Shown here: piece by piece, positions 1 to 56,513 of the stretch
How the letters are laid out: the number at the start of each line of letters is the position of its first letter
Position numbering within the stretch: position 1 is the first letter of the stretch
NCBI GenBank assembly: GCA_000091205.1
Contig: AP006489.2
Reading direction: 5' to 3' (one strand)
Length of the DNA: 64,000 nucleotides
Source: Cyanidioschyzon merolae
Taxonomy: Eukaryota
Position numbers and translations under genes: made by a program
Notes under the pieces: model-generated
What the model saw: the letters and a program-made list of their open reading frames with translations, nothing else
Databases searched by the model: none
Told to the model about the DNA's origin: nothing

Positions 1-700
1 GGAGTATACAAAGCCGGGTGGGCTCTTCTGCGAATGAACTTGTATTGCCGGAAGCAGCGCGCATTCGCGAACTTTTTCAATGAGTTGAGCGCCCTGAAAG
101 AGGATGAAAGTCAGAGGCTTGTAATAGCGTACGGAGCAGGGCGCTGGATGACCCAAAAAGGTACTACACCAGCTCCAACGACAAGAACGTACAAAGAGTG
201 TGCACGGCGTTTTGTCACAGTACCTGTAGATGAGTTCCGAATATCGTATACACACCATGAACTGGGACGTACACTTCAAAGGGTCGAGATGGAAAAGTGC
301 CAGGGGAGTCCTGAAGACATAGCAAAGTACGGACCGCTGCCGGAGGTGCAAATGGAGAGGAGGACAAAAGTGCGAGGGCTACTCGCATTCGTAAGTACAA
401 CCAACGACGGCAAGAAACGTATGGAGTTTGTGAACCGAGACTTTAACGCCGGCATCAATATCAGGAGATGCGCGGTGATGGAGAAAAGGCCTCCACAGTA
501 GACAAGAGAGAATTTTAAAGGACAACTGCTCAAAGTGGAACTATATGAGAAACAATTGGAACCAGTCGTAAGTGGCCGATCCAAGAAGACGGGGAGGCGT
601 CTGCACGTCAGTTCGAGACTGCTTGTCTAGGGCGGGTTTATCGCCACCACTGTGCACCGCTGGCGGCGGTCGACTTTTGGAAGGTATTCGCTAGAGGTGC
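1..700 (+). mobile_element. TnpB/Fanzor-like element, copy A (3' portion; truncated by window start)
   Basis: ORF 34-501 is ~85% aa-identical to ORF 55723-56451. C-terminal motif KRMEFVNRDFNAGINIRRC matches the TnpB/Fanzor RuvC-III consensus (RDxNAAxNI). Nucleotide homology to copy C continues past the TAG at 502-504, through an in-frame tail ending ...RRLHV..LV near 633, into ~60-100 bp of conserved non-coding sequence. Confidence 0.55.
34..501 (+). CDS. TnpB/Fanzor-like nuclease C-terminal domain ORF (copy A); premature TAG relative to copies B/C
   Basis: Homologous ORF; degenerate zinc-finger region (TRTYKECARRF, second Cys of the CxxC lost) followed by the RuvC-III-like NRDFNAGINI. The stop at 502 replaces GAA TGG of copy C. 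Confidence 0.5.
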   Translation: MNLYCRKQRAFANFFNELSALKEDESQRLVIAYGAGRWMTQKGTTPAPTTRTYKECARRFVTVPVDEFRISYTHHELGRTLQRVEMEKCQGSPEDIAKYGPLPEVQMERRTKVRGLLAFVSTTNDGKKRMEFVNRDFNAGINIRRCAVMEKRPPQ

Positions 701-802: not shown

Positions 803-3157
803 ATGAAGGCGCTGCACGTGGCGGAGAAGCCTTCAGTTGCACGTCAAGCCGCAGCTGTGCTTGGACATGGTCGCGCGGAGCGAAAATGCAGCTGTTCTCC
901 ATATCACCCCAACTGGTTCTGGTCTGGTGTGTTCGAGTTCAGCGCCAAAGACGGGACGCGCTTCGTGGTCGACGAGCAGGTCTTTACATCTGTGAGCGGT
1001 CACGTCGAGGAGCTAGACTTCGTCACACCTTATCACAAGTGGAGTGCCTGCGAACCAGTGGACATATTTCGGCGGGACCTGGTGCAAACTCGCCGCTTTG
1101 TGCCGGAGAGGAACGCAAAGGTGGCGCAGAATCTGGGGCAACTGGCCCGTACGTGCCAGTACCTTGTGCTCTGGCTTGATGGCGACTCTGAAGGCGAGGC
1201 CATATCAGATGAGGTGCAGCGAATTTGTAAGCTGCCTCCTAGCATGGTGTTCCGTGCCCGTTTTTCGGCAGTAACGCCCAGGGACCTTTTCCGAGCCTGC
1301 GCTACGCTTGACCGGGTGAATGCGAAAGTTGTCGAGGCCGTATGGATTCGTCAGGAAATCGACTTGCGTGCTGGGGCCGCATTCACCAGGTGGCTAACGC
1401 GGCACATACAGCGCCATTACCCACAAGCGCTCATTTGCACATCTGCAATTGTCGCCTCGCGGCGTAAGGGTGCCTCTGGAACTTCCAACTTAGGGCGGAA
1501 CGAACGCCTGCAGGGGAGCGGTGTTTCTTCTGCTGACGCTGCTGTGGTGAGCTACGGACCCTGTCAGTTTCCGACACTCGGCCTTGTCGTGGATCGCTAC
1601 CGCGAGCGGCGCGAATTTCAAACGAAGCCCTTCTGGACGATTCGCATGCGTATTCAGACGACTGGCGATCGAGCCAGCGGGAATCAAGTCGAGCTTTGCT
1701 GGGACCGGGCACGCATCTTCGACCGCTTTATTGCATATGTCCTTTTTCAGAGGCTCCACGATGCGGTACGGTTGCCAGGCGCCTTACGCATGATCGCTTG
1801 TGAGAAGCAACCAGCTCACCGAAGTAGACCGTTGCCGTTATCGACGGTAGAGCTCCAGAAAGAAGCCTCCAGAAAACTCAAGCTATCTTCAGCGCAGACT
1901 ATGGAAATAGCCGAGCAACTCTATCAACAGGGCTATATATCTTACCCCCGAACGGAGACGGATCGATTCCCAACAGACGATCGTGGTATATCGAACCTCA
2001 AAGCACTCATTACCCTGCAATCTGAAGACCAGAGATGGTCATTGCTAGCAAAGCGGCTGCTCGAAACCGACGACGTATCACGTGGTGGGTTCAAAGCACC
2101 GCGCGCGGGCAGCCATGATGACCACGCGCATCCGCCTATTCATCCTACCAGCGCTGCACCGCCCGGCACCCTGAGCGGCGATGCCGCCCGACTCTATGAG
2201 TATATCGCTCGCAGATTCCTGGCTTCATGCTCTGCGGATGCCAGTGGCGAACGCACCATCTGGCGTTTCGCCGTCTTTTCGGGTGCATCGGAGGCGCGTA
2301 CTGAAGCACCACAGGAGACGTGCATGTTTCCCGCGAACACGGTCTTAGAGACATTCACGAGCAAGGGTCTTCGTATCACGAATCTGGGCTATTTGGAAGT
2401 TTTTTCTCCATATGAGAAGTGGTTGGAAAGCACTTTGCCAGGCGATTTGGAATGCGGTGCTGCGGCTCCAGAGCATTTTTGGCTGACGGAGCTGCGTCTT
2501 GAGGAATCGATAACAGAGCCCCCCGCGCTGCTCTCTGAGGCGGATCTCATCGCTGCTATGGATCGCCACGGCATCGGCACCGACGCGACGATTGCAGAGC
2601 ACATTAAGAAAATCCAGGAACGTCATTATGTGGTGAAACAAATCATAGCGGAGGAGCGGCGCCGCCAGTCTCATCGAGCCGGAACACAGGTGCACGATGC
2701 CGCCGCGAACAGCAGCGACGAGTGCGATGCCTCACAAGTGACGTCTCGGGCACACTCTGCGACGAGAACGCGGGAACGTTGTGGGCTCGTCTCAAGGAGC
2801 AGCGTACAGCGTTTCGTGCCTATGAAACTGGGCCAAGCTCTCGTCGAAGCATTTGAAAGCTGTCACGTGCATTTAGCGCGCCCCAACCTTCGTGCTGAGC
2901 AGGAAAGGCGCCAAAAACTTGTCGCCAAAGGAGAAGCCTCTGGGTCAGAGGCACTGGATGAACTCCTAACGTCTTTTGCGGAAGCGTTCCGACGCCTCGT
3001 GCTCGAACGCAGCAAGTTTGATGCGACGTTCTGCAAGTTCTTTCCGAAAGCAGAGCCTCCTTCGCTTTTGCGTGCTCCTGCCGCTCTAGAACTCACTCAG
3101 AGCAGCGTAAGACGTTCTTGTGTTGTGCCCACGGACGAATCGAATGCGAACGAATAA
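803..3157 (+). CDS. TOP3: DNA topoisomerase III (type IA)
   Basis: 784-aa ORF, ATG at 803. N-terminal TOPRIM-like MKALHVAEKPSVARQAA..GH, then the type-IA active-site motif QQGYISYPRTETDRF. Confidence 0.85.
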   Translation: MKALHVAEKPSVARQAAAVLGHGRAERKCSCSPYHPNWFWSGVFEFSAKDGTRFVVDEQVFTSVSGHVEELDFVTPYHKWSACEPVDIFRRDLVQTRRFVPERNAKVAQNLGQLARTCQYLVLWLDGDSEGEAISDEVQRICKLPPSMVFRARFSAVTPRDLFRACATLDRVNAKVVEAVWIRQEIDLRAGAAFTRWLTRHIQRHYPQALICTSAIVASRRKGASGTSNLGRNERLQGSGVSSADAAVVSYGPCQFPTLGLVVDRYRERREFQTKPFWTIRMRIQTTGDRASGNQVELCWDRARIFDRFIAYVLFQRLHDAVRLPGALRMIACEKQPAHRSRPLPLSTVELQKEASRKLKLSSAQTMEIAEQLYQQGYISYPRTETDRFPTDDRGISNLKALITLQSEDQRWSLLAKRLLETDDVSRGGFKAPRAGSHDDHAHPPIHPTSAAPPGTLSGDAARLYEYIARRFLASCSADASGERTIWRFAVFSGASEARTEAPQETCMFPANTVLETFTSKGLRITNLGYLEVFSPYEKWLESTLPGDLECGAAAPEHFWLTELRLEESITEPPALLSEADLIAAMDRHGIGTDATIAEHIKKIQERHYVVKQIIAEERRRQSHRAGTQVHDAAANSSDECDASQVTSRAHSATRTRERCGLVSRSSVQRFVPMKLGQALVEAFESCHVHLARPNLRAEQERRQKLVAKGEASGSEALDELLTSFAEAFRRLVLERSKFDATFCKFFPKAEPPSLLRAPAALELTQSSVRRSCVVPTDESNANE

Positions 3158-3908
3158 GACATATTTGAGCGCAACATGATGCACAGGCATCGCTGGATTC
3201 AACAGTACCGCGACTCTGGTTCCTGTGGGCATGTGTCGCTCAGGTTGGTGCCGCCCATGCGAACGATCTGCTGAGACACTTCAGCACTGATTCTCACTCT
3301 TGCATCCATCGCTCGCTGCAGCGTCGCCTTTTGCGAAGCTTCAAGTCGCCCAAGGCGACGCATTCTGAGCAATGCTTCCGAGTCGTTTTCGGCATCTGCG
3401 CTAATCATACTTGCGACGGTCTTTACGAAGGCTGTAAAGGTCATATACCGCAGCTAAAACATGATCTCTGGAGTTTCGGTCATGTACTCGAAGGGAACAA
3501 TTTAATGCCGGCCCCGCGAGGGATTCACTGCGACGTACGAGGATTCTATCGTGCTCTCAACTGAAAAAATCTTTCGAATGTGAGAAATCGCATCCTCCGT
3601 TCTCACAAAAGCACCAGCGATATTCATGTCGAGCCAGAGTATCACTGTTCCAGGCTTGATCGCAAGAGAGAGGCGTAGTTGGGTACCAGTCAGGTCAGTT
3701 CAACGCCAACCGATGCCGTCGTAGCCTTCCAACGTCACCTCCACTTCTCAAGAACTTCAGAGAAAACTCTCATTCATAACCGACTCAGAACGGGATGCCC
3801 GAAATGCGACGACGCAAGTGTCTCCGTCGACACACGCACTCGATGACAGCTGCCTTAAGTTTCGAGGACCGGCGTTCGCAGTCCCACCGCGATGCGCCCA
3901 GCGACTCC

Positions 3909-4376
3909 TTACTCCTGTATGGTAACCTCAACTTCCACACCGGGCTCGATAGAAACAGCAGTAATACTTTTCACTACGTCAGTGGGCGCTTCAAGGTCAA
4001 TAATACGTTTGTGAATGCGCATCTCGAAACGATCCCAGGTGTTGGTTCCCTCTCCACACGGTGACTTGCGCGTCGTGATGCGCAGACGACGTGTCGGCAG
4101 CGGCACTGGACCTTTTACTCGCATGAGCCGCCCCTTCTCAGACGACGCACCTGATGACGCTCCCAGCAGCGCGCCATCGACTCGCATCTGCGAGCGTTCC
4201 GCGCGAGAAACTGCTCCCTTGCTTTTCGCGCCCTGAACAAGATCAAAACAGACCTTTTCCAGCGCTCGCACGTTTCTCGAAGCTAAGGTGATCCGTATTT
4301 TATGAAAAGGCTCCGATGAAGTCTCATAGCCAGGCTTCTTTGCCGGTCCAAACCCCACTCCAGGAGTCGCCATGGT
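3909..4376 (-). CDS. RPS20: 40S ribosomal protein S20 (uS10)
   Basis: [87 protein letters not shown] closely matches eukaryotic RPS20. Start placed at the internal ATG (MATPGVGF...). Contains an in-frame 93-nt GT..AG segment at 4119-4211. Confidence 0.8.
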
Positions 4377-22799: not shown

Positions 22800-23720
22800 T
22801 CAAAAGGCGAGCTCGAAACTCATGACCAACTACCTCCGCACTACGGTGAGGATGCTCTTCCGATGCAAATCAGCAGCAGTTTCTTATTCGAAGAGTTTTA
22901 GTCTAGGCTGCAGATTTGAACGGAACAGCCAGTGACCTGTTAGCGCTCTCAGCAGCACCCTGTATTCAACGCTACAACGCCGCTATGATTGCGCGATGCA
23001 AAGAACGAACCAAAGCACTTCAATGTGATCGTGCTCATGAAAAAATGCTTTGGCAGGGCGCCCTGCATCGGAACAGAAATCATTCTTTCTCTTTAATATA
23101 TAAAAGCGAGGCATGAAGAGGGCAACTACCAAGGTTTCACATGACGACATTGATGCTTTGTAACATTGAATACATTATAGAAAAACTTCTGCGCTTTTCA
23201 CACCGTTTGACTGATGATAAAAACATAATACGAGATATCTTTCACCGAAGAAGCCTTTGCAGATAGAAAACTCGCAGATAAACAAAATCGGAAGCCGGGT
23301 AACGATACAGCAAGCAGTAATATTCACTGTGCAATAACCGAGATTTTAAAATCACTAGTCCTTCGACACAGATCCCGACGGACTAGGCGTGACGGACTCA
23401 CACATCTCTGAATTTGAGTGGAAATTCGATCTGAGCGACAATTCTACATCAGCGACAATGCCGTCAGGACTACCAAAACCCCTCGTAGGCAAACTCAACC
23501 GCAAGTTTGAATTCGACAAGGTCCGCGCAATTTACCACAGCATGCAAGCCATTAAGGAAAGCTGGGCATTTACAAAGCAGGTCGCTTGTGATTTAATGAT
23601 ATAGGATTAAAACAGACCATCAAAAAACTTTTGTTACGAAAGCGGTAGCCCACTGAAGAAGTGAGTTACATCAGGGTGCATCCCGCTCCTCAGCTCGCGC
23701 GCTCTCGACGCAGAACACAC

Positions 23721-26700
23721 TCAGAAATATCACAAAAAATAGAACACGATTACCCTTCACCAACGACCCAGGAAAACCATTCCTAGTGTATCCATATGCC
23801 TCTCCAGCTTTCCCGGACTCTGAACCATGCCATGCAAGTGCCCTGCTCCAGGCGGGATTTCAGCGCCGCCCCTCTTGGCCACTGAATTGGGTCTATCGCA
23901 AGTCCTCGCCATTTCAGCACGATGCCCACAACGGGCACTGCAATACTCCCACCAAAGCTCGCTCGACACAAGCTCGCTGTACGCTCCAGGACCAGCAAAC
24001 ATTTCGGGTTGTTGATTGGCCCGTCCGGCTCGGCGGAGAACGTGCTTCCGTGCACTGTTGCTGGCGATATCACACTATGACGAGCTTCTCACTTTCGATT
24101 GCCTCGCAATGCGACGTTCGGTCAGCTTGCCGCCCAAGATCTCGTGGCATCCGACTCTGTTTCAATCTCGCCTTCTCCAGATGCTGCAGCCTACGCCTTC
24201 GCACGTGATGGATCTATGCCGTCCAAAGCGCATCGATGTAAATCGTACTAATCGGTTCCTGCACGCGTTGTACGCTCCCGTCGAAGGAGAGGGAGAGCAG
24301 CCCGCACGCGCCCCAGCACCTCCAGCGCCATAGACTAACACAAAACCACGCGACTTGTCGGCCATTTACTTTTCTAACTCACTGAACTAGTATATTCTCA
24401 CGATTCCTGCATATACAAATCGGTAGATGTTGGCGACCCCAGCGCTGTTTCAAGTACCCGGCCAATGTTCGTTCGTATACGACATTTGGACACTCAGGCA
24501 CTCTCTGAATCAAGCGCACGGGGGATCCGTTTCTGGTCAATCCGGCGCGCAGAACGTCGGGATGGGCCCTGAAGCCGTCATTCCGCGTGCCGGTACGCCT
24601 CGTTGAGTCGACCATGCCCGGCTCGCGATAATGCCGAGCCCCGGAGAAGCTGAGTTGCTCCATCTGATTGCCGCACAGCTGTTTGCATGCGTCCTTTCAA
24701 TTTAGGGGCACGGCGGAAGCTACGGCGTTCTTCATACAGGGATCCACGCCCGCCACAAAGACTGTCCCGTAAGCTACCATGCACGATTGAGAACGAGTCT
24801 TGTTGCTCGGCTCAGCTCAGGGTTTCACAACGTGCATGCAGCCTGGTATCCCGTAGGTCTCCGTCGCCCCTGTAAAATTCTTTCCATTTCCTCCCCGTAA
24901 CGAAGCAACCCTGAGGGAGCTCCGGCAATGCTCCATACGAAGCTGATCGAAAGCTTCGTAATTACCGGAAGAGAGGAGGCATAGCTCGCCGCGGAAACTA
25001 TCTAGTATGAAACGAATATGCCTACGGTAACATGGCAGGCCTTGATATGAAATATGGGAGTACTTCGAACGGACGCTTGAGGAGTCTTAGGCGCTCGCAC
25101 ACAGTGAGGGAGTTTGCGTTGCTATGGAGGGCTTCCTCGAAGAAAGCGCAGTAGCTCGTATGCAAGGAAGCTAGGCATCACATTTCAACCATCCCCTCTA
25201 TGGGTCGTGCGTCGGTCCGACCCCGCGAGCAATACGATGAGCCTGCGCCCCCACAGTCGGCTCTCGCGATCGTTGCGTTTTCCCTTCTGCGCTTGCTACG
25301 AACTCCATCTCGTCCGCCCAGAGCAGCTCGCCTTTTAACTATAAAGATACCGCTAGAAACTCATCCATCAGTCCCCTCTTTCCTGGGTCAGTGAATTGAG
25401 GGTACATCGCCCACAGGGTGCGGTTCATGAAGCGCTCGAGAGTGGCCGCATATTTTCTTCGGTTTTTGACGATAGTTTGATACTTTTTGGCACAGCGCGG
25501 TAGCTTTCTTTCGTTGCCCACATACAGCGACGACGCGTCAAAGCATTCTGCGATTCATGTGTGTAGCCGCTCGTCCTACAATCAGGCCGTGCTGCATATT
25601 GCGTTCAGAGCATCAGTTGCGCGTCGTCGCGCGAAGTCTTCATCGAGGAACTCCAGAAGAACGTGGACACCATGGAGTCCTATGTCGGAACTTCCGCAGA
25701 CCGTTGCTTGACCAGGCGGCTCAAGACGAGAGAGGCTAGGCGCGCATTATTCGGGTAAGGAGCTTCTCGAGCCTTCACGACGTCCCGGATTTCGCGTTTT
25801 GGAAGAGCCTCCCCGTTGAAGTGTGTTTGTCGGGAGACCTTGGCAACGGTTTCAGACTGATATTTCCGCTCCGACAGCTTTCCTTCCTGTACCACTTCGT
25901 CCCGTTTTCTGAAGGCTCTTCCGCTTCCTTGTCTGGTGGTCCCTCGCCCTTCTCCTTGACTTGGCGCGGCGGCAGAACTGTTGCCGCTATATTCCATATC
26001 CAGGTTTTTCGTCGGGATTCAGACAAACTAGGTGGATTCTAGCACTGCCATTCGCCCGCTCGATGGATCTATGTATCTAATTCGCTCCGAGTACACTTTC
26101 GTCAGTGCTTCCGTGGCAAGCACAAGCATGAGCCGAGGCGCACCTCCTCGCTCGCTCACACGAACCGCAAGAGATGCAACAAAGCAGTTCATGGCGAAGA
26201 AAACAAAGAGGGACTTGTCGAACAACGATCTCATGGGCGCGAGCCACTTCTCTATTGATCCGTGAGCGTAAGAATGGAATTTGGCACCGGAGAAGAAACA
26301 GTCGACTGGATTAAACCATGGAGAATGGGCTAGTGCGAAGAGCAGCTCCACGAAAATCACAGATGCGTACCCCTTGACCACCTTTGGGTTATGGAAATCG
26401 AGATCGTCTCAGAACAGGACAGAAAAATGTGGAAAGAAGGCACCACAAGTGCTTCGACGAAGAAAGAGCTTTTGAGTGATCCAGTCCATTTGGGGATATG
26501 TGGGCGATCGCACGACTGCATTTCCGCATGGGTTGGTGTTGTCGCCATTCTCGCTTGTCTCATTACTAGGAAGATGGTCCTCGCTGGGGGCGCGCTTTTT
26601 CGCTCGTCTATCCGAGTCTCTTCATAACCAACCGTATCAACGGCGCGTAAATTTCCCGTCCTGTGGCTTCATTGAAAGTTCTGCTCTGAACACATATGCA

Positions 26701-26981
26701 GCGGAAGGAATTGAGGAGAAAGTCGAGCAGATTAATTTCTATATCATCTGACTCGGGTGCACGGCGTTCAGGATAGGGGCTACGAGAAGGGTGGTTCATC
26801 CACCAGCTGACGGCAGGGCGACTTGCAGTATACATGTAGAGACATTTTGGCCAGCTTCCAGTACCACCACAAAGGCTATCCGCGAATTTTTTGCTCAGTT
26901 TAAGGGATACATCTTTGTGTTGAATTTCTGCGAAAAAATCAAAAAAATACAAAATGACGCGCTGGTGTAGGGGTGCAGGAT
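23721..26981. repeat. left arm of a 3261-bp inverted repeat (x maps to 56833-x)
   Basis: Every ORF in this arm has an identical-sequence partner on the opposite strand in 29852-33112. Nucleotide spot checks at 24301-24360 and at both boundaries are identical. Confidence 0.85.
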
Positions 26982-27538: not shown

Positions 27539-27949
27539 CAAGCGAGAACGATCACAAAATCAGCCTTAGTGTTCTGAAAATACAGATACTAACCATCAAA
27601 TAGAAATTCGATATCAATTTTCTTCCTACTTTACGGTAACCATTGAAAGGGGAAAGCATTTGCTTATTCTCAAAAGTTCGGTTTCCAGGCTGAAAGTCGC
27701 ACGAGCCTTCCGAGCCTGCCAAGCTTTCGCTCCACATGCCTCTTTATAGCCTGGTGCTCTAGCAAGGCTTGAACAGCTCGTCCGCTGTGCGGGATAGTCT
27801 GGGACTTCGCGTGCTCAGGCTGTGTCTGGGACTCGCTCTCGTCGCGATGCTACTCTGACACATTGCTTCGCGCTTTTGCTTGCAGTGCGCCTGTCTGCGC
27901 GGATTGCAGGCTCTCAGCAATATAATGAATCCCGATCCCGAGTCGGCGA

Positions 27950-28120
27950 AAAACGCAGCGAGCTTACGTCTTCGGTGGTACGGCAAAGCCGTCCTGTCTG
28001 CGTGCTGCATTCGCACCTGCGGGATAGGCGCTAATGCTGGTGCCCACGATAGACTCGGCGCAAGATAGAACGTTCGAAACGACCAGTATGTCCGAGGGGA
28101 AGGATGGGTAATAGAACTTG
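27950..28120. repeat. left arm of a diverged (~80%) inverted repeat inside the spacer
   Basis: Reverse complement aligns with 28383-28553 (for example ctggtcgtttcgaacg / ctggtcgtttcgtacg). Symmetry centre 28251.5, distinct from the large repeat's centre at 28416.5. Confidence 0.6.
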
Positions 28121-28382
28121 AAGATAAGATTACGCATGACTGACGCTTTCCCGAATGCCAATATCGACCCCGCAGTCTGGGATCCATGGTCTACACAAAC
28201 GCTCTCTCTGACAAAAATGCACATTTTCCGCGCTCACGGGTCGCGTGCGATACTCTTTCGAATTTTTTTCATTGACAAAACGTTTACTTAGGCCAGCGTT
28301 CTCCGATTATGCGCATTTTTCTTTTCTTACTTTTTGTGTCTTTTTCAGTGCGCGGTGAAGTATCCATCAAACGCCCTACCTC

Positions 28383-28553
28383 CAAGATACATTACCTATG
28401 CTTCATCTCGGATATTCTGGTCGTTTCGTACGCCCTATCGTGTGCCGAGCGTGCCGAAAGCGACAGCAGTAGCGCCTATAGCGCCAGTGCGGTCGCTGCA
28501 CGGAGACAGAACGGCGTTGCCGTACCGCAGAGGGCGTCGGCTCGAGGGATACT
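28383..28553. repeat. right arm of the diverged spacer inverted repeat
   Basis: See left arm. Overlapping ORFs 27759-28187 (-) and 28334-28684 (+) share WSFRT...DRTALPY peptides. Confidence 0.6.
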
Positions 28554-29851: not shown

Positions 29852-32800
29852 ATCCTGCACCCCTACACCAGCGCGTCATTTTGTATTTTTTTGATTTTTT
29901 CGCAGAAATTCAACACAAAGATGTATCCCTTAAACTGAGCAAAAAATTCGCGGATAGCCTTTGTGGTGGTACTGGAAGCTGGCCAAAATGTCTCTACATG
30001 TATACTGCAAGTCGCCCTGCCGTCAGCTGGTGGATGAACCACCCTTCTCGTAGCCCCTATCCTGAACGCCGTGCACCCGAGTCAGATGATATAGAAATTA
30101 ATCTGCTCGACTTTCTCCTCAATTCCTTCCGCTGCATATGTGTTCAGAGCAGAACTTTCAATGAAGCCACAGGACGGGAAATTTACGCGCCGTTGATACG
30201 GTTGGTTATGAAGAGACTCGGATAGACGAGCGAAAAAGCGCGCCCCCAGCGAGGACCATCTTCCTAGTAATGAGACAAGCGAGAATGGCGACAACACCAA
30301 CCCATGCGGAAATGCAGTCGTGCGATCGCCCACATATCCCCAAATGGACTGGATCACTCAAAAGCTCTTTCTTCGTCGAAGCACTTGTGGTGCCTTCTTT
30401 CCACATTTTTCTGTCCTGTTCTGAGACGATCTCGATTTCCATAACCCAAAGGTGGTCAAGGGGTACGCATCTGTGATTTTCGTGGAGCTGCTCTTCGCAC
30501 TAGCCCATTCTCCATGGTTTAATCCAGTCGACTGTTTCTTCTCCGGTGCCAAATTCCATTCTTACGCTCACGGATCAATAGAGAAGTGGCTCGCGCCCAT
30601 GAGATCGTTGTTCGACAAGTCCCTCTTTGTTTTCTTCGCCATGAACTGCTTTGTTGCATCTCTTGCGGTTCGTGTGAGCGAGCGAGGAGGTGCGCCTCGG
30701 CTCATGCTTGTGCTTGCCACGGAAGCACTGACGAAAGTGTACTCGGAGCGAATTAGATACATAGATCCATCGAGCGGGCGAATGGCAGTGCTAGAATCCA
30801 CCTAGTTTGTCTGAATCCCGACGAAAAACCTGGATATGGAATATAGCGGCAACAGTTCTGCCGCCGCGCCAAGTCAAGGAGAAGGGCGAGGGACCACCAG
30901 ACAAGGAAGCGGAAGAGCCTTCAGAAAACGGGACGAAGTGGTACAGGAAGGAAAGCTGTCGGAGCGGAAATATCAGTCTGAAACCGTTGCCAAGGTCTCC
31001 CGACAAACACACTTCAACGGGGAGGCTCTTCCAAAACGCGAAATCCGGGACGTCGTGAAGGCTCGAGAAGCTCCTTACCCGAATAATGCGCGCCTAGCCT
31101 CTCTCGTCTTGAGCCGCCTGGTCAAGCAACGGTCTGCGGAAGTTCCGACATAGGACTCCATGGTGTCCACGTTCTTCTGGAGTTCCTCGATGAAGACTTC
31201 GCGCGACGACGCGCAACTGATGCTCTGAACGCAATATGCAGCACGGCCTGATTGTAGGACGAGCGGCTACACACATGAATCGCAGAATGCTTTGACGCGT
31301 CGTCGCTGTATGTGGGCAACGAAAGAAAGCTACCGCGCTGTGCCAAAAAGTATCAAACTATCGTCAAAAACCGAAGAAAATATGCGGCCACTCTCGAGCG
31401 CTTCATGAACCGCACCCTGTGGGCGATGTACCCTCAATTCACTGACCCAGGAAAGAGGGGACTGATGGATGAGTTTCTAGCGGTATCTTTATAGTTAAAA
31501 GGCGAGCTGCTCTGGGCGGACGAGATGGAGTTCGTAGCAAGCGCAGAAGGGAAAACGCAACGATCGCGAGAGCCGACTGTGGGGGCGCAGGCTCATCGTA
31601 TTGCTCGCGGGGTCGGACCGACGCACGACCCATAGAGGGGATGGTTGAAATGTGATGCCTAGCTTCCTTGCATACGAGCTACTGCGCTTTCTTCGAGGAA
31701 GCCCTCCATAGCAACGCAAACTCCCTCACTGTGTGCGAGCGCCTAAGACTCCTCAAGCGTCCGTTCGAAGTACTCCCATATTTCATATCAAGGCCTGCCA
31801 TGTTACCGTAGGCATATTCGTTTCATACTAGATAGTTTCCGCGGCGAGCTATGCCTCCTCTCTTCCGGTAATTACGAAGCTTTCGATCAGCTTCGTATGG
31901 AGCATTGCCGGAGCTCCCTCAGGGTTGCTTCGTTACGGGGAGGAAATGGAAAGAATTTTACAGGGGCGACGGAGACCTACGGGATACCAGGCTGCATGCA
32001 CGTTGTGAAACCCTGAGCTGAGCCGAGCAACAAGACTCGTTCTCAATCGTGCATGGTAGCTTACGGGACAGTCTTTGTGGCGGGCGTGGATCCCTGTATG
32101 AAGAACGCCGTAGCTTCCGCCGTGCCCCTAAATTGAAAGGACGCATGCAAACAGCTGTGCGGCAATCAGATGGAGCAACTCAGCTTCTCCGGGGCTCGGC
32201 ATTATCGCGAGCCGGGCATGGTCGACTCAACGAGGCGTACCGGCACGCGGAATGACGGCTTCAGGGCCCATCCCGACGTTCTGCGCGCCGGATTGACCAG
32301 AAACGGATCCCCCGTGCGCTTGATTCAGAGAGTGCCTGAGTGTCCAAATGTCGTATACGAACGAACATTGGCCGGGTACTTGAAACAGCGCTGGGGTCGC
32401 CAACATCTACCGATTTGTATATGCAGGAATCGTGAGAATATACTAGTTCAGTGAGTTAGAAAAGTAAATGGCCGACAAGTCGCGTGGTTTTGTGTTAGTC
32501 TATGGCGCTGGAGGTGCTGGGGCGCGTGCGGGCTGCTCTCCCTCTCCTTCGACGGGAGCGTACAACGCGTGCAGGAACCGATTAGTACGATTTACATCGA
32601 TGCGCTTTGGACGGCATAGATCCATCACGTGCGAAGGCGTAGGCTGCAGCATCTGGAGAAGGCGAGATTGAAACAGAGTCGGATGCCACGAGATCTTGGG
32701 CGGCAAGCTGACCGAACGTCGCATTGCGAGGCAATCGAAAGTGAGAAGCTCGTCATAGTGTGATATCGCCAGCAACAGTGCACGGAAGCACGTTCTCCGC

Positions 32801-33112
32801 CGAGCCGGACGGGCCAATCAACAACCCGAAATGTTTGCTGGTCCTGGAGCGTACAGCGAGCTTGTGTCGAGCGAGCTTTGGTGGGAGTATTGCAGTGCCC
32901 GTTGTGGGCATCGTGCTGAAATGGCGAGGACTTGCGATAGACCCAATTCAGTGGCCAAGAGGGGCGGCGCTGAAATCCCGCCTGGAGCAGGGCACTTGCA
33001 TGGCATGGTTCAGAGTCCGGGAAAGCTGGAGAGGCATATGGATACACTAGGAATGGTTTTCCTGGGTCGTTGGTGAAGGGTAATCGTGTTCTATTTTTTG
33101 TGATATTTCTGA
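29852..33112. repeat. right arm of the 3261-bp inverted repeat
   Basis: Reverse complement of 23721-26981. Outer boundary tcagaaatatcac; inner boundary gggtgcaggat. Confidence 0.85.
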
Positions 33113-34618
33113 TTGTATTATATTTCAACCAGGCGCTTGCGACTCGACAACTTACATAATCCTTTCGGTTCCCTGATAATGATTTAGAAAAAAATTTTTT
33201 GAGCCTTTTTGCAGCCCAGAAGATCGAAAAAGTGCTGCGTGCTCCAATCCACGGGATTCGTCCGAGCCTGGCAGAAGCATTGAACGGTATGAAACTTGCT
33301 CGCTTATCAGTAAAAACTTCTATACGGTCTCTCTGGGTGTGAGGAATTTTTTCTTTTGTTCGTTAGTGTGATGCTTTGCATGGTGTTTCGCCTTCAGCAC
33401 TTGGGAAGTGAGCTATGGTCGGGAACAGCGTTCGCAGCATCAGAATGAAACCGCGAATTCATTTAGTAATATTCTCTGCCACGTAGCTGTTCGTCAGGCG
33501 TTGCGAAAATAGGTCACCGGTGGAATTTGTGAATGTTGCATTTTCCGAGATGATTTTAGTCGCCGAATACAGCAGCCACTTGAAGACCTCATGACCCAAG
33601 GGTGTTAGAATCGATATCTTCAAGCAAGAAATTTACGCGCATGGTTTTTGCAGCGACTCTGTCTGCGTTTACCTTCCTGGTCGGATATTCCCGCTGGGAC
33701 TCTATCTATCATGAAGTGGTGCCTCTTGCATATTCTCAAGCCAAAGGGAAGGGGAGCATGTGAATAGTGGTGGTGCTTGGAATATGTTCAAGATTTCATC
33801 AGGTATTTTCCAGTGAACCCAGGTCACAGGGCCCACTATCTCATTTGCATACGGCCAGTTATCCTGGAAACACTCCGCCGCAGTTTCAATTTACAGGGTC
33901 CATGATTTGATCTATAGACTGCGAAAGCTCTGTGGCAACTTAAGCGAAGCACAACAAAACTCGGGAACCTAGTTATCGCTTATCTAATGAATTGACCACG
34001 ACGCGTCGCATGGACATCAAAGTTTGTTGCCTTCTGCAAAATGGAGCACTTGCTAAAGAGCTCCTGCAGCAATTGATACTCGGAAAGGTGAACAAAAACG
34101 CTGTGCGCTCCGCGCATCATAACTCGAGTTGCTAGGAAATGCGCATCTCAGCTGTTTACAATAGCATCACCGTATAGTTCGCTGAATCTATATTTCACTC
34201 ATCTTGGGATGAGAACAGCAGCCCCTTTCCTCAATTGTCGAGAGGCTAGGTCGGCAGATGTCGCCTGACAATTTCAAAATTACATGGTCTCAGAAATGAA
34301 CTGATATACCTTCCAGCAGTGCAACAGAGCCTTATCGGAGACTTCAAATCAAAGCGCACGCACAAGTGTGAGCACCTCTGCTTGGGTGCTCAGCTCGACA
34401 GGGCACCTTTGCGGTAGAGAGAGACTCAGCGCTGGCTGCAGTAAGAGCGAAAGCGTTCGGGATATATTACAGAACAAGACCTTCGCCCGGGCCTTCCGAT
34501 TTATTGCAAAGAAGATGGTCATGTTTTCGGGCTTACAACCATGTGCTGATTTCATTTGCAATTCAAAATCGTTGCACATGAAGAAGAGAGGTAAATGCGT
34601 TCATAAAGTTGATATCCA

Positions 34619-42553: not shown

Positions 42554-43718
42554 ATATTTACATTTATGTATATTTCTTAGACTTCAGGACTGTCTGGCGA
42601 GCACCGTGGGGCGAAAACGCTGCACGCCCATGGGATAAATTGATATAGACGTGCAAACGCCTCCCGGCTGCCTTCGACCAGCACTCTGCAATGAGCTCCA
42701 GATTCTCCGTGTAAACCTCGAACCTGAGAGGCTGCTCTACAAAGTTAGATCGCGTCAGCTCTCATGATCTCGTCTTCAGCACTGGGCATATCCTAAAAAA
42801 GCTGGCAGCGTTAAAGTATCGGTTCAGGAACTGAAAGCGTTTGTTGCTTCTGGTGGTACGCACCAATGCATCGATTCCTCGAACTCGAGCGCTCTGTCCG
42901 AGTACAATCTCCTCTAGGCAGACTTTCGTTCTTCTTCCTCGTCTTCGTCACTTGCTCTTATTTGCTCGACGATCACCGAGAAGAGGCTTTTTTCCGTTTT
43001 TTCTATGGCACTCGGCTATAACCGCCGTCCAGGTTCCGCGATTTATAGGTCCATATCTTTCCCTTGGATTTTTCATTTCTTCAAATGAAAGAACTTCGGA
43101 GACGTCTGCTATGCACCGCGACAAAACAATTGATTAAACGCATCTCGGGGTGAAACACAATTGACGTAAAAGACTGCAAAATGCGTGAAAAACTGCCAGA
43201 GGATGCGAAATTGACGCTCGAACGCTGCCATCAGCGTCCTTTGAGAGGTGACTACAGAATTGGAAGGAAAGGGAAAACCGTCGTATTGAACGCGGGCGAT
43301 ACGCTAGCAGAAAAGGAAAGCATCAGAAAAATCCCGGAGAGGCTGATGTAGACTACAGAGGGAAGAGACCCAAACTTTAGTACTTGCCTAAGATATGTTG
43401 TTGGACCTGTTCTACATTATACTCACGTGGATGTAGAAAAGCCACGGAAATAGTGTTTATCTGTCGTGAGCAAGTGCGCCTCGGCCGTTTTGCTGTGCAG
43501 CGCAATGCTCGCAAGCTAAGAAGGTCGGGAGCACGCATTTACACGGTTGTACAAGAGTTATGTCGCATCCAGGGGCCTGAGCAGTGCACTACAACGGGCG
43601 AGTGGGCAACTTTTTCTGATGCCACAGCGCCGTAAGGTTCATAGAGCGCTTTGGTGCAAGACCTCTGCAGATGAAGCTCACAGCCGCGCATACGAGAGAT
43701 TTTCTTCAGTGCTGATCA

Positions 43719-48478: not shown

Positions 48479-48978
48479 ATGAAGCGCGCAGGACGTCATT
48501 TTCCTTCAGTCGATGAGACTTCCTTCGTACGAAACGGTCGATGCCTATATGGGTATTCGTGGAGAGGGAGCTCGATTTACGTACGATCGAGCTCGAAGAG
48601 AAAGAACTCAGCATCTGCTCAAGCTGCAGTGGACTATTCGGCGGCCTCCTTTTTGCTCGTAGGTATTGGCATGTAAGTCGAGGATCCTGGAGGCTCGTCA
48701 TCACCGGCTGAAGAAATAAAACGAAAAAATCCTCTTCTTGCCCACCGTCGCGCGAAGAAGTGCAAGCGGAGAAGAAGAAGAGTGGATATAGGCCGGAAAA
48801 TGCTTTTGCCTGTCAAGACGATGACGAGACTGTTTTGTTAGAGAGGGTGCGAGTTCTGAGAATCTTTGCACAGATGAGTTCATCCAGCGGCAATAAATGC
48901 AAGGTGTTCATGAACCGAGACCTAAACGCCGCCATCAATATCAGACAATGTGTGCTGCTGAAGACGAGACTCGAGTAG
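48479..48978 (+). pseudogene. diverged TnpB/Fanzor-like copy D (3' part). Exon-like blocks at 48479-48673 and ~48712-48978, with a putative intron starting at GTAAGT (48674).
   Basis: Frame 48712-48978 encodes ...REEVQAEKKKSGYRPE...RVRVLRIFAQMSSSSGNKCKVFMNRDLNAAINIRQC, which aligns with copy A (EMEKCQGSPE...KVRGLLAFVSTTNDGKKRMEFVNRDFNAGINIRRC). Upstream block MKRAGRHFPSVDETSF aligns with CARRFATIPVDEFRTSY of copy C. ORF 48760 starts with GTG, not ATG. Confidence 0.45.
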
Positions 48979-51900
48979 CTGGTGGAATCTAACTTTGTGC
49001 TCAAGCCTTTCAGGCTCGAAGAATTTAGGGAAAAACTAATGCTGGCAGAAAGCGTCCTGTCAAAAAAGCTGGGAAGCGCCAGTGGGTGAGTGTATATTCA
49101 CCCTACATGATCAGGGACATTTTCTGCATCACAAACAACGTATGTTGAAGCGGTCGGTATACTCAGAGCCATGATTTCTGGAACACCTTAACACACATGC
49201 TATGTTAGTTTTGCTTGTTTTCTCACGGCCGGTCGGCTCCAGGAATGTAGTCTTTCCATTAGAGAAAACCTGCGGAGAGAATTCGTGCTGTCTCTGCTAA
49301 CTTGGGCAAAATGGCTTACATCTACAAGTGAGTCACTCTACAGCCTCCAGACGAATTAACCACCCATATAGCAGTCCTTATCCTAAACAACGCTCGCCCA
49401 AAACAGATTGCATGAAACTCCTTCTGCACGACTCTCTCATAATCATTCCACCCCATCCCATATGATCTCCTAGCAATGCTACAAAAGCAGCCAAAAATGT
49501 GGAAGGTTTCAGTATCGTTGGTTCTATCGGAGTTGAACAGATTCGGAATGATAAACGGAAAGACGCGCTCAAAACGGAGAGCTTCGAGCTCCGAATAACA
49601 AGCACTACCGACTTTGTATTTAAACGCAAACAACAACTATAGTTGCCACGAATGTTCGTCTCCCTCGAAGAGAATTCATTCGCGAGAATAGTAATACTTC
49701 TATTTGGGTGCTCAGAGAGGGCAAACCTCTGTCTTTAACGCATCGACACGGGAGCATGACGAATATATCAACCAAAGCCGCAATGTGGTCGTGTGGTCAC
49801 CTACAGATCGCCAAACGGACATGATCGTTCAGTCCCTAGCCCTTCCTCGAGACACATTTCATGGCTTCTCTTTCGCACATTCTTGTCGTCTGCTCCGAGC
49901 CAATGTCGCTTTTCCTCATGTAACAGCTGTAAAGGAGTACCCAGCTCAGATCGACTTTGAGCTGCGTTTTATACGGACCTATTCTCCCCGGTCCGATCCA
50001 GACCATGCCGTCTTCTCTACTCTTAAATGCCATATCCATGCTCAAAAATGACAAGCGGACTCATTTGCATCCATGGAACCGATATATGAAGGACGCCGTC
50101 ATGCATCGTATGGCACCTCTTCGGTGGAAAGCTCGCTCAGCATCTGCTGCATTTACGCTCCGCGCCAGTCCTTCTTCGTCGGGGTTCTGGACGCAAAGCG
50201 TTTACGTGTCCACATTCGCCTGAAAATTTTTAATCAAAACTTCGATCGACAAATGATGCTCTAGACATAAGAGACAACACAACGAAGTAGTAGGATAAGG
50301 GCTTTGGATACATGCATCTTAGGATACTTAACACGTCGCCGCGCCAGGTCTGCGATCGGAATATCTACAGCGATGGTATCAAAACGTGGCAAACCACTCT
50401 CACATACCGAGACCGTATCCGCGTCGGTCTCGAGCTGTTCATGAAGCGCACCGTGTAGCCGTTCTAGCCTCACCTAGCAGGCCGAGACACGGAGGGATCA
50501 GCGGAAGGGATCCTTGTGTGTCGATAAAGGCAATCGACGTGCTGGTCCTGGCAGTGGAGGTCGAGATGGCAAGGTGTCGGAAGAGGATGTTGCACAGAGT
50601 GCGACAGTCGCATCCGATCGTCCGAGCTCACCGTGTTGTTCTCCACCACAGAAATATGCACGTCGTATTCAAAGAGTTTTCAGCACCTTGATGCACCCCC
50701 CTTTGCAACTTCCGGCCCGACGTTTTCCCCGAACAGAGCCTTCCGGAGCAGATCAGGTTCTCTTTCCGAATGCGAGCTATATCGCGTATCCAAGCTTCTA
50801 TTAGATAAGCCTCTCGTGTGTCAAATCAAGACTCGCCTTATCAGCGTAGACGCTTCCGCCCCGAGCGACATTCTCAGCGAAGTGTGGCTGGTTTCTGCGG
50901 GCAAGTGTGGAGAATACGAACACTTTCGCTAAGAGAATAGAGGGTTCGCTCATGTTTTCTGGTTTCCAGACGGGAATGGAGACAATACTAACACAAACAA
51001 TGTATACTTTCGGAATATCAAACTGCACGTACTTCGTGGGACCTATGTCTGAAACAGTCTGCGAGAATCTTTCTGACCCGTTCAGGATAATTGATGAGAA
51101 GAGTGGACAGTGTGTTTGCATCTCAGGCATAAGAGCACGAACGGCCTCACAGTACCTCTGAAGGAAGATAGCGAAGCCAAAGTTCTGAACGGATAGCAGA
51201 TAAAAGTTTCTGGCTGTTCCTGGGCTCGGGATCATAGAGTCTGTGGTGTTTCGGAGCGGAGGAGCCATACAACCAAAAGTAATGACAGCGTCAGGACCCA
51301 GCTCGACGCTCAAGAACACTGTATTGACCTGTGGAAGCCTTGCACGATTTATTCAGAGAGTAAACGATCGCTCAAGTTCCTAATGCGTACGATCCTTGAC
51401 AGAAATAAATAAAACAATGTTGGGGTCAACGTCCGCTTCCATTGCACCGACGGAGGAAGCGTCCATATACCCATTAGTTCAGTCAGTTTGAAAACGGAAA
51501 GAACCGAGAAGTCGCTTCATCTGGTGGTAGGCGATGGCGCTGAATATGCTCTGGTGCGCAAAGCCTGCATTCTGGCTCCTGAAACTAGAGCATTCAGTAA
51601 GTGCAGGAACCAAGTCTGTGCGATTCCCGTCGATTATAGAAGGATGACAAACACGCCTTACGAGCGAGATTGCATGCCGAAACTGGAAGGCGAGTTCAAC
51701 ATGAAACAGAGGCGTTTGTATACGATGGTCTACAGGAGGCTGATCGAACATCAGACTGCGAGGAAATCGAGAATGAGGAACCTGCTTTTTGATGATTCCA
51801 GCAGCAACAATGCGTACCAGCACATTCTGCAGCGAGCATTGATCGCCTAGATCATTTTCCGGAAATTTCTCCTGCTTCCCGGGCGTTCAGTGGCCTTGTA

Positions 51901-54332: not shown

Positions 54333-55310
54333 AAACGCCTTTCAAAAGAAAAATGCTGTCGCCGGCCGTGTACAGGAGTGGCGAATGGTGCGCCCTAGAC
54401 TAGACATCTCCAACCGACGTGCAGACGCCTCCCAGTGCTTTTGGAGCGGCCACCTACTACTGCTTCCAATTGTTTCTCATATAGTTCGACTTTGAGAGGT
54501 TCTCTTACAAAGTTCTCTCTTGTCCATTCTGGAGGACTTTTCTCTAGTACCGCACATCTACTTTTATTGATAGGGGCGTTAAAGTCTCGATTCACAAACT
54601 TCATTCGTTTCTTGCCATCACTGGTTGTACTTACTAATGGAAGTAGTCCACGAACTTTCGCCCTCCTTTCCATTTGCTCTTCCGTTAGCGGTCCGTACTT
54701 TTTTATATCCTCAGGGCTCTGCTGACACTTTTCCATCTCGACCCTCTGAAGTGCACACCCCAGTTCATGGAGTGTATAGGACGTTCGGAACTCATCTACA
54801 GGTATCGTAGCGAAACGCCTTGCGCACTCCTTGTACGTTCTTGTTGACGGAGCTGGCGTAGTCCCTTTTTTGGACGCCCAGCGCCCTGCTCCGTTTGCTA
54901 CAACGAGCCTCTCACTCTCGTCCTTCTTGAGGGCGCTCAACTCATTGAAAAAGTTCGCGAACGCCCGCTGCTTTTCACAATACAAATTCATTCGCAAACG
55001 AGCCCACCGGGGCTTTGTGCATTCTTTCCAAAGGCTCTCGTCATGAGCAGCGTGAATTTTCATAACCTCTCGAAAAGCTTCAATGTCGGCTCCCCGGCTC
55101 GTCACATGGCTGATCGCTTCCAAATTCCCTTAACACCTGAATTCGATGTCTCACTTTTCTTCCTTGCATTCATTATACGGGATTCTCGATGGTATCTCGC
55201 TCATGAGAGCATCAACAGACTTATGTCTTTCTGACGTAAGTTACCATCAGTACCATCTTCCGCACGCTTGGGTGCTGCGACAGTTATGATATTTGTGTTC
55301 CAAGGGTCCA
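54333..55310 (-). mobile_element. TnpB/Fanzor-like element, copy B (left arm of the palindrome)
   Basis: Reverse complement of 55536-56513 at ~99.9% (one aa difference, T vs I, in RSKS[T/I]GRR). Confidence 0.6.
54395..55123 (-). CDS. TnpB/Fanzor-like nuclease C-terminal-domain protein (242 aa), copy B
   Basis: ...TRTYKECARRF...KKRMKFVNRDFNAPINKSRC. The RuvC-III-like motif carries A>P and I>K substitutions relative to the consensus. Confidence 0.55.
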   Translation of the reverse strand: MEAISHVTSRGADIEAFREVMKIHAAHDESLWKECTKPRWARLRMNLYCEKQRAFANFFNELSALKKDESERLVVANGAGRWASKKGTTPAPSTRTYKECARRFATIPVDEFRTSYTLHELGCALQRVEMEKCQQSPEDIKKYGPLTEEQMERRAKVRGLLPLVSTTSDGKKRMKFVNRDFNAPINKSRCAVLEKSPPEWTRENFVREPLKVELYEKQLEAVVGGRSKSTGRRLHVGWRCLV

Positions 55311-55356
55311 CACCAACGACAAAGTCCTTACCCTGCACCTCCTGCATCGCAGGATC

Positions 55357-55477
55357 CGCACTCTTCTCATCTACATGTTTCGCCTAGCCGTCTACAAGGT
55401 TGTACTTCTCCAACTCCTGCGTCGCAGGATCCGCATCCTTCTCATCTACATCCTTCGCCACGGGCGAAGCCGAGGAC
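55357..55477 (+). repeat. two 46-bp near-identical direct repeats (period 75 bp) at the centre of the palindrome loop
   Basis: ctcctgcatcgcaggatccgcactcttctcatctacatgtttcgcc (55357-55402) and ctcctgcgtcgcaggatccgcatccttctcatctacatccttcgcc (55432-55477). Confidence 0.8.
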
Positions 55478-55535
55478 GGACCAGGAGGCGGGCCCGACAG
55501 CGCTGGAGGTGCAGAAGAACGATTTCTCGTTGGCG

Positions 55536-56513
55536 TGGACTCTGGGAACACAAATATCATAACTGTCGCAGCACCCAAGCGTGCGGAAGATGGTACTGAT
55601 GGTAACTTACGTCAGAAAGACATAAGTCTGTTGATGCTCTCATGAGCGAGATACCATCGAGAATCCCGTATAATGAATGCAAGGAAGAAAAGTGAGACAT
55701 CGAATTCAGGTGTTAAGGGAATTTGGAAGCGATCAGCCATGTGACGAGCCGGGGAGCCGACATTGAAGCTTTTCGAGAGGTTATGAAAATTCACGCTGCT
55801 CATGACGAGAGCCTTTGGAAAGAATGCACAAAGCCCCGGTGGGCTCGTTTGCGAATGAATTTGTATTGTGAAAAGCAGCGGGCGTTCGCGAACTTTTTCA
55901 ATGAGTTGAGCGCCCTCAAGAAGGACGAGAGTGAGAGGCTCGTTGTAGCAAACGGAGCAGGGCGCTGGGCGTCCAAAAAAGGGACTACGCCAGCTCCGTC
56001 AACAAGAACGTACAAGGAGTGCGCAAGGCGTTTCGCTACGATACCTGTAGATGAGTTCCGAACGTCCTATACACTCCATGAACTGGGGTGTGCACTTCAG
56101 AGGGTCGAGATGGAAAAGTGTCAGCAGAGCCCTGAGGATATAAAAAAGTACGGACCGCTAACGGAAGAGCAAATGGAAAGGAGGGCGAAAGTTCGTGGAC
56201 TACTTCCATTAGTAAGTACAACCAGTGATGGCAAGAAACGAATGAAGTTTGTGAATCGAGACTTTAACGCCCCTATCAATAAAAGTAGATGTGCGGTACT
56301 AGAGAAAAGTCCTCCAGAATGGACAAGAGAGAACTTTGTAAGAGAACCTCTCAAAGTCGAACTATATGAGAAACAATTGGAAGCAGTAGTAGGTGGCCGC
56401 TCCAAAAGCATTGGGAGGCGTCTGCACGTCGGTTGGAGATGTCTAGTCTAGGGCGCACCATTCGCCACTCCTGTACACGGCCGGCGACAGCATTTTTCTT
56501 TTGAAAGGCGTTT
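55536..56513 (+). mobile_element. TnpB/Fanzor-like element, copy C (right arm of the palindrome)
   Basis: Inverted copy of 54333-55310. ORF 55723-56451, then a conserved ~60-bp 3' tail ending 55 bp upstream of the ATG of the LRR gene. Confidence 0.6.
55723..56451 (+). CDS. TnpB/Fanzor-like nuclease C-terminal-domain protein (242 aa), copy C
   Basis: ATG-initiated, and ~85% aa-identical to copy A with many synonymous nucleotide differences. Confidence 0.55.
   Translation: MEAISHVTSRGADIEAFREVMKIHAAHDESLWKECTKPRWARLRMNLYCEKQRAFANFFNELSALKKDESERLVVANGAGRWASKKGTTPAPSTRTYKECARRFATIPVDEFRTSYTLHELGCALQRVEMEKCQQSPEDIKKYGPLTEEQMERRAKVRGLLPLVSTTSDGKKRMKFVNRDFNAPINKSRCAVLEKSPPEWTRENFVREPLKVELYEKQLEAVVGGRSKSIGRRLHVGWRCLV

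Follow-up and report, generated by a model that had tools for sequence, protein, structure and literature searches.

Purifying selection on the Fanzor1 gene of CMe-1A, and disabled copies of the element in a 64-kb window of Cyanidioschyzon merolae

Cyanidioschyzon merolae is the host of CMe-1A, a family of mobile elements described by Bao and Jurka (2013, Mob DNA 4:12, PMC3627910) as comprising about 150 copies, with a consensus of 3169 bp, no terminal inverted repeats (TIRs) and a target-site duplication (TSD) that could not be determined. Its single-exon gene, represented in Repbase by the consensus CMe-1, encodes a 734-aa protein of the Fanzor1 type, the 5' 635 bp of the element are common to the non-autonomous TE-N2_CMe, and no transposase was given for CMe-1A (PMC3627910). 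The same authors concluded, in qualitative terms, that selection had maintained a "long lasting coding capability" in the family (PMC3627910). Their analogy was with the HAL1-type families, which are also old and of high copy number, have one accessory open reading frame (ORF) under purifying selection and carry no transposase, but belong to an unrelated element class (LINE-derived retrotransposons) and encode an unrelated protein. RNA-guided cleavage of double-strand DNA next to a target-adjacent motif (TAM) has been shown for other Fanzor1 proteins only (PMC10432273). Here three copies of a repeat, A, B and C, are considered, located in a stretch of 64,000 nucleotides from contig AP006489.2 of C. 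merolae (the whole stretch is called the window below); a first-pass annotation had labelled their protein TnpB-like and claimed that it evolved under purifying selection.

CMe-1A and its copies in the window

The copies occupy the first 690 nucleotides of the window and the block 54333-56513; their main features are as follows.

1-690, + strand: copy A, the 3' part of CMe-1A (element about 2494-3161), truncated by the window start, with 88.8% identity to the consensus
1-690, + strand, frame 1 of copy A: coding 1-498, tail 502-627, native stop codon 628-630, 3' untranslated region (UTR) to about 690
232-234, + strand: codon of the RuvC-II catalytic Glu of copy A (GAG, in PVDEFRI), aligned with DEFRT of the solved Fanzor1 proteins
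439-441, + strand: codon of the RuvC-III catalytic Asp of copy A (GAC, in VNRDFNA)
499-501, + strand: premature stop codon TAG of copy A; TGG in copy C, Leu in the family consensus
54333-55486, - strand: copy B, 5'-truncated CMe-1A (element about 2103-3186) with an ORF at 54395-55123; left arm of a dimer with copy C
55483-56513, + strand: copy C, 5'-truncated CMe-1A (element about 2154-3199) with an ORF at 55723-56451 in frame 1
55538-55540, 56053-56055 and 56260-56262, + strand: catalytic codons of copy C, namely the RuvC-I Asp (in VGVDSGN), the Glu and the second Asp

Judged by its sequence, this repeat is CMe-1A, the Fanzor1 family of C. merolae 10D. The published CMe-1 protein matches the ORF of copy A (34-498) with 88% identity over its residues 537-691, and that of copy C (55723-56451) with 82% identity over its residues 493-734. 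The repeated unit measures about 3.2 kb and has a sharp 3' boundary in a eukaryotic genome. A consensus built independently from 22 full-length loci is 3211 nt long, opens like the published 3169-bp CMe-1A (CGATGACAAAACGTTTACATTGACC...), and encodes 734 aa in an ORF that is preceded by about 915 nt of non-coding DNA; no long ORF was found in these 5' 915 nt, and the element as a whole has a single ORF. The lone frame break of this consensus lies within a variable acidic repeat region and is a product of consensus building. The published family and the one described here share the host genome, a length of about 3.2 kb, one intron-less ORF, a 5' part of about 635 bp in common with TE-N2_CMe, and the lack of TIRs and of a clear TSD. 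The divergence from the consensus is 10-15% here, as against copies "approximately 80% identical" in the published account, the copies used here being mostly from metagenome strains; nothing sets the two apart, and they are the same family. The label "TnpB-like" is correct in the sense of remote homology, the precise name being Fanzor1, family CMe-1A.

The relation to known nucleases was reached through distant relatives. A search with the copy C ORF returned 204 close relatives, all metagenomic, and an exhaustive profile search returned 1428, among which the full-length proteins measure 600-700 aa and are aligned by the family over their C-terminal two thirds; a hypothetical protein from Haematococcus lacustris is a named relative. 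When 68 diverse relatives were combined in a profile, it matched three solved Fanzor1 structures, those from Parasitella parasitica (9cf0, E=2.2e-21), Spizellomyces punctatus (8gkh, 5e-15) and Guillardia theta (9cer, 1e-7), with the motifs DPG(R), DEFRT and NRD.NAA aligned; in the CMe-1A consensus these read GADPGN, VDEFRT and NRDFNA, a RuvC-like Asp-Glu-Asp triad. Of the profiles searched against the sequences of the Protein Data Bank, the two made from the close family (A1 and A5) matched no Fanzor or TnpB, and only the diverse profile (A3) succeeded. Pfam was run on the ORFs of the window, on long members of the family and on ten full-length proteins among the distant relatives, and gave nothing above threshold; the best sub-threshold match was Cas12f1-like_TNB, with E=0.24 for a family protein (P0005) and E=0.0023 for a distant relative (P0138).

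With SpuFz1 (8GKH), PpFz1 (9CF0) and GtFz1 (9CER) CMe-1 thus shares profile-level homology over the REC and RuvC parts and the three catalytic motifs, as well as a size of 600-750 aa, although the relation is distant and was reached only via the profile of diverse relatives. The N-terminus of CMe-1 is basic and resembles a nuclear localization signal (KKRK and KKQK at consensus residues 15-35, outside the window, in loci L047, L014 and others). Unlike the solved proteins, CMe-1 has a Cys-rich zinc-finger insertion between RuvC-II and RuvC-III that appears degenerate (HHELGC...C..); SpuFz1 loci have inverted repeats, whereas CMe-1A has none; and the three solved proteins are nucleases characterised both biochemically and structurally. 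By homology the CMe-1 protein is likely an RNA-guided RuvC nuclease of the Fanzor1 type. Bacterial TnpB, found in IS200/IS605 and IS607 elements, has the same RuvC-type D-E-D core by remote homology, and its elements, like CMe-1A, lack TIRs and TSDs and have sub-terminal hairpins. In contrast to them, CMe-1A has a single ORF and carries no TnpA transposase (Y1 HUH or serine recombinase), its protein is almost twice as long and has no Pfam match to OrfB_IS605, with Cas12f1-like_TNB staying below threshold, and its host is a eukaryote.

Purifying selection and decay

Copy A (1-630, frame 1) can be aligned without gaps to copy C (55822-56451, an offset of 55821), with 119 differences in 630 nt (81% identity) that fall on codon positions 1, 2 and 3 in the numbers 34, 22 and 63. 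In the stretch 34-498 (155 codons) 38 codons differ only synonymously and 30 with a change of amino acid; by the method of Nei and Gojobori (NG86) dN is 0.108 and dS 0.704, a dN/dS of 0.15 (Fisher p=2e-14). Over all 208 codons NG86 gives dN 0.135, dS 0.600 and dN/dS 0.22, and Goldman-Yang pairwise maximum likelihood (GY94; F3x4, kappa free) gives 0.27 and rejects omega=1 (likelihood-ratio statistic 36.7, p=1.4e-9). Under a resampling null, in which each observed change is reassigned to a different site that matches it in base and CpG status, the corrected ratio is 0.37, and the observed proportion of nonsynonymous to synonymous changes (N/S) was reached in none of 500 simulations. The tail behind the premature stop taken alone (502-627, 42 codons) has a ratio of 0.51 that is not significantly below 1 (p=0.18).

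The codon-aware comparison of A with C, which the first-pass annotation had itself proposed, therefore yields a ratio clearly below 1, and the purifying selection claimed there is borne out. All ten of the codon pairs that it had listed are present: TGC/TGT at 46, CGC/CGG at 58, GCA/GCG at 61, CTG/CTC at 94, AAA/AAG at 97, GAT/GAC at 103, CTT/CTC at 118, GTA/GTT at 121, TGT/TGC at 199 and CGG/AGG at 205. The amino-acid changes are fewer, as it had stated (30 codons against 38), but they are not mostly conservative: only about half of the 30 are, the non-conservative replacements being R/E, Y/N, H/L, R/C, G/Q, A/K, V/E, G/P and I/K. The coordinates given there were shifted by one to three bases; the premature TAG exists but lies at 499-501 and not at 502, and the tail is alignable in frame but only to 630, where the native stop codon closes the frame, and not to about 633.

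The wider sample was obtained by a scan of metagenome contigs that returned 396 stretches, of which 80 loci were kept; clustering of these and of the window at 98% identity gave 54 distinct copies. The last 454 codons of 87 sequences were aligned by projection on the majority consensus, itself an open frame. Among the 54 copies the pairwise dN/dS has a median of 0.33 (5-95% range 0.25-0.41; dN 0.147, dS 0.452), and 99.9% of the copy pairs lie below 1 (the latter in a run with the coding end 15 codons further 3'). Read in the two wrong frames, the same copies give 0.96 and 1.22. The ratio is 0.23 in the RuvC core, 0.48 in the N-terminal part, 0.51 in the C-terminal tail, 1.04 in the acidic 23-residue repeats and 0.81 in the 14 pseudo-codons past the stop codon, a gradient of constraint such as a real enzyme should show. 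In 36 of the 54 copies the whole catalytic triad of Asp, Glu and Asp is retained. On a neighbour-joining tree with ancestors reconstructed by Fitch parsimony the terminal branches have a ratio of 0.41 and the internal ones of 0.33, and nonsense changes amount to 0.53 of the expectation on the former and 0.34 on the latter; measured against a null matched to the mutation spectrum the ratios become 0.53 and 0.43. (The figures from the tree and the spectrum null were obtained with the coding end set 15 codons too far; the conclusions are the same with the corrected end.) The family-wide ratio over all copies, on which the first-pass annotation had staked its claim, thus stays below 1, and its proposal that the family is, or recently was, a functional protein-coding gene is supported by that ratio together with the wrong-frame controls and the spectrum null. 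According to this signal, the ancestral lineages of A and C remained functional through most of the time in which they diverged.

This signal has no bearing on the present function of A or C, both of which are disabled. Every copy in the window is disrupted by a stop codon, a frameshift or a 5' truncation. Copy A keeps the catalytic Glu and Asp, its RuvC-I falling outside the window, and its upstream part, seen in orthologous metagenome contigs (L001-L004), contains a further frameshift. The 5' truncation of copies B and C falls within the acidic repeats, and in both the RuvC-I segment and the ORF are in different frames; all three catalytic residues are present in copy C, but across a broken reading frame, since its RuvC-I segment lies in a frame of its own that ends in a stop. 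Stops or frameshifts interrupt the last 454 codons in 52 of the 54 copies (on average 2.0 stops and 0.74 frameshifts); the two exceptions, L005 and L012, no longer have the stop codon, and L012 is also frameshifted upstream. Many copies are 5'-truncated, at varying points, and the longest family protein found, P0318 of 752 aa, lacks about 35 C-terminal residues.

With high probability, then, A, B and C are dead relics of CMe-1A, and the synonymous excess between them arose in ancestral lineages that were still active. CMe-1A is a mobile element of about 3.2 kb whose single 734-aa gene codes for a Fanzor1, the eukaryotic homologue of bacterial TnpB, and the synonymous excess would have built up while the ancestors of the copies were active elements. 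As daughters would have come only from lineages in which the protein, and above all its RuvC core, still worked, most of the pairwise divergence would have passed through that filter; after its inactivation each copy would have gained stops, frameshifts and truncations at a roughly neutral rate. A rough partition by hand, which assumes a divergence from the consensus of about 0.22 synonymous and about 0.07 replacement and an omega of about 0.15 while active, leaves about 4% of neutral divergence per copy; the number of stops expected on that basis, two to three per 1.4 kb, agrees with the observed one.

An alternative is that the copies are individually selected in place, as a multi-copy family of the host or as a domesticated Fanzor. 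The terminal-branch ratios (0.41-0.53) speak for it, as do pairs of copies at least 98% identical (among loci L001-L084, several being the same locus in different strains), for which the ratio is 0.47 by NG86 and 0.61 against the null, significantly below 1 (0/500 simulations); in addition, the copies diverge by 10-15% from the consensus and yet carry only about two to three disabling mutations each. Against it stand the stops or frameshifts in nearly all copies and their truncation at different points, the state of the window copies themselves (a cut pseudogene and a truncated palindromic dimer), and insertion sites that vary between copies with sharp 3' ends. Moreover, nonsense changes among the near-identical copies are neutral (observed/expected 1.23). 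Gene conversion would import differences that have already been filtered, and so could lower omega in near-identical pairs without any selection on the copy; such conversion among copies would be the likeliest cause of the replacement deficit seen there, very recent inactivation being another candidate. Selection in place is accordingly improbable.

Another possibility is that the low ratio is an artefact of mutation bias (an excess of transitions or CpG changes, base composition by codon position) or of alignment, acting on repeat DNA in neutral decay. NG86 assumes equal rates, and correction for spectrum and CpG lifts 0.33-0.41 to 0.43-0.53, so that some mutation bias does exist. However, the corrected N/S was reached in no simulation (0/100 to 0/500), the two wrong frames give ratios of 0.96 and 1.22, the post-stop pseudo-codons 0.81 and the acidic repeats 1.04, as against 0.23 in the RuvC core, GY94, with kappa and F3x4, still rejects omega=1, and the majority consensus is open over 734 codons. 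Tested in these ways, by the spectrum null, the wrong frames, the regional gradient and GY94, the artefact is rejected, and we consider it very unlikely.

The ends of the element

Between the stop codon of CMe-1A and its sharp 3' boundary (...GAAAGGCGTTT) lie 60-75 nt, which correspond in the window to 631-690 in copy A and 56452-56513 in copy C. This 3' UTR holds hairpins, the terminal one of which can form from either of two sequence variants, CGTTCGA-CTT-TCGAACG and CGTTTTTC-TTTT-GAAAGACG; across copies it has a mean z of -2.06, compared with +0.40 in an ORF control. The terminal hairpin is degraded in copy A and partly kept in copy C (56490-56510). A central CGCC of the UTR could pair with either an upstream or a downstream GGCG. 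In SpuFz1 the guide-RNA scaffold is at the matching position, and a putative guide RNA, its guide running on into the flank, would lie here in CMe-1A. RNAalifold, applied in 43 copies to the 3' UTR together with its flank and the final 180 nt of the ORF, found only 3 invariant pairs, so a conserved extended guide-RNA fold is not demonstrated; the UTR diverges at about the rate of four-fold sites, and the divergence at four-fold sites shows no dip near the 3' end of the ORF (0.16-0.20, the mean being 0.19). That part of the constraint acts at the level of RNA or DNA (an overlapping guide RNA, terminal recognition structures) and not on the protein is scarcely credible: the paired variants of the terminal hairpin favour it, but the absence of a four-fold-site dip, the UTR divergence and the few invariant pairs do not, and such constraint lowers dS and not dN, and so cannot give a dN/dS below 1.

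Several points weigh against CMe-1A as a Fanzor1 element whose copies died and then decayed neutrally. The protein is recognised directly neither by Pfam nor by close-family profiles, and its link to Fanzor1 runs via distant relatives; an AlphaFold2 model of P0318, from a shallow alignment of 45 rows, is too poor to help (pLDDT 43.7, pTM 0.29). No uninterrupted full-length copy was found among the 80 loci, which leaves the statement of Bao and Jurka as the sole source for present-day activity. Most copies in the family sample stem from C. merolae-like populations, as metagenome contigs, and not from the 10D assembly itself. The guide RNA at the 3' end stays putative: with few invariant pairs, a UTR diverging at the neutral rate and no synonymous dip, it is something we infer and not a result. 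Finally, ratios below 1 on the terminal branches and in near-identical pairs are not predicted by a copy that is dead on arrival and then neutral; they call for unsampled active intermediates, gene conversion or recent inactivation.

As to the ends of the consensus, an inverted match between them is not significant (p ~0.07), so that no TIRs are recognised, and a direct match is marginal (p ~0.02). No TSD is visible at 19 left and more than 50 right junctions. The insertion sites vary among copies.

Copies B and C are arranged as a palindrome. The sequence of window positions 1-665 recurs at 55835-56513 in the same orientation and, inverted, at 54333-55011, and B and C together form a head-to-head dimer of 54333-55323 and 55523-56513 with a 199-nt spacer. 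Between its arms of 991 nt there are 5 differences, four of which are no more than 22 nt away from the inner junction, itself located in the acidic repeat region; the outer limits coincide exactly with the 3' end of the element (...GAAAGGCGTTT), and beyond them there is unrelated host DNA on both sides. The dimer could have resulted from strand switching during insertion or from a later inverted duplication, or it could be an assembly artefact. The acidic region consists of tandem units of 23 residues (~TKDEDEKEADPATQEVEDNDFVV) just before RuvC-I, at consensus codons 101-148 and at 55324-55522 in copy B; individual copies have between one and at least five units, and the evolution of the array is neutral.

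Other Fanzor-derived sequences and the meaning of the family

Apart from A, B and C, the window contains shorter pieces of the same origin and two of its host genes with identified products:

27582-28191, - strand: solo 5' non-coding part of CMe-1A (element 35-647), fitting TE-N2_CMe
28376-28553, + strand: solo 5' non-coding part of CMe-1A (element 99-278), fitting TE-N2_CMe
42648-43164, - strand: degenerate CMe-1A remnant with an internal deletion (element 814-982 and 2863-3026); 50% aa identity over residues 638-728
48844-49074, + strand: short degenerate RuvC-III remnant (NRDLNAAINI); 38% aa identity
51500-51913, + strand: degenerate Fanzor-related fragment; 29% protein identity to the consensus
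803-3157: TopoIII-alpha gene; protein identical to BAM79581.1 (C. merolae 10D)
3909-4373, - strand: uS10 gene; protein identical to BAM79582.1 (C. merolae 10D)

The two solo 5' parts are mutually inverted and lie inside the spacer of a large inverted repeat, 23714-26981 / 29852-33119, whose arms of 3268 nt are 100% identical and separated by 2870 nt. Each arm contains a degraded stretch (23913-24900 on the - strand, 31933-32920 on the + strand) with 24% protein identity to CMe-1; no ORF of at least 120 aa was found in these stretches, which are probably a remnant of a second, older Fanzor-like family. In total the 64-kb window holds at least 8 Fanzor-derived pieces (A, B, C, the two stretches in the inverted repeat and three fragments). 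A search of the window for stand-alone copies of the 3' UTR core found only A, B and C and one weak match at 62490-62508 (- strand; 19 nt with 3 mismatches to the core, CGCCAGTACTGTGTACCGC); chance alone would give no such match, and no element sequence can be recognised around it. The host genes of the window, among them those for topoisomerase III, ERCC1, a leucine-rich-repeat (LRR) protein and uS10, are long and intron-less, and the exact identity of the TopoIII-alpha and uS10 proteins with BAM79581.1 and BAM79582.1 assigns the window to strain 10D. Rfam and tRNA scans of the window found nothing.

For annotation, positions 1-690 and 54333-56513 are to be regarded as CMe-1A pseudogene fragments and not as genes. 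The family, its TnpB/Fanzor nature and its maintained coding capacity were all published in 2013, and the outcome is as expected for a transposon-borne nuclease; what is added here is the formal dN/dS test, the profile of constraint per domain, the count of disabled copies and the hairpins of the 3' UTR. The qualitative argument of 2013 has thereby become numeric: the Fanzor1 gene of an old, high-copy, transposase-less family has been maintained by purifying selection, and the focus of that selection on the RuvC core fits the later finding that Fanzors are RNA-guided nucleases serving their elements. Much more speculatively, CMe-1A might still be a working RNA-guided Fanzor1 system in this thermo-acidophilic alga and may move through a single-stranded or strand-switching DNA intermediate, an idea suggested by the lack of TIRs and TSDs, the sub-terminal hairpins at both ends and the B/C dimer that ends at the 3' end of the element; if true, this would be a lifestyle like that of IS200/IS605 or Helitron elements, led without an encoded transposase. 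The wider leads are the mode of movement of CMe-1A and the possible recovery from this alga of an intact Fanzor1, adapted to heat and acid, together with its guide RNA.

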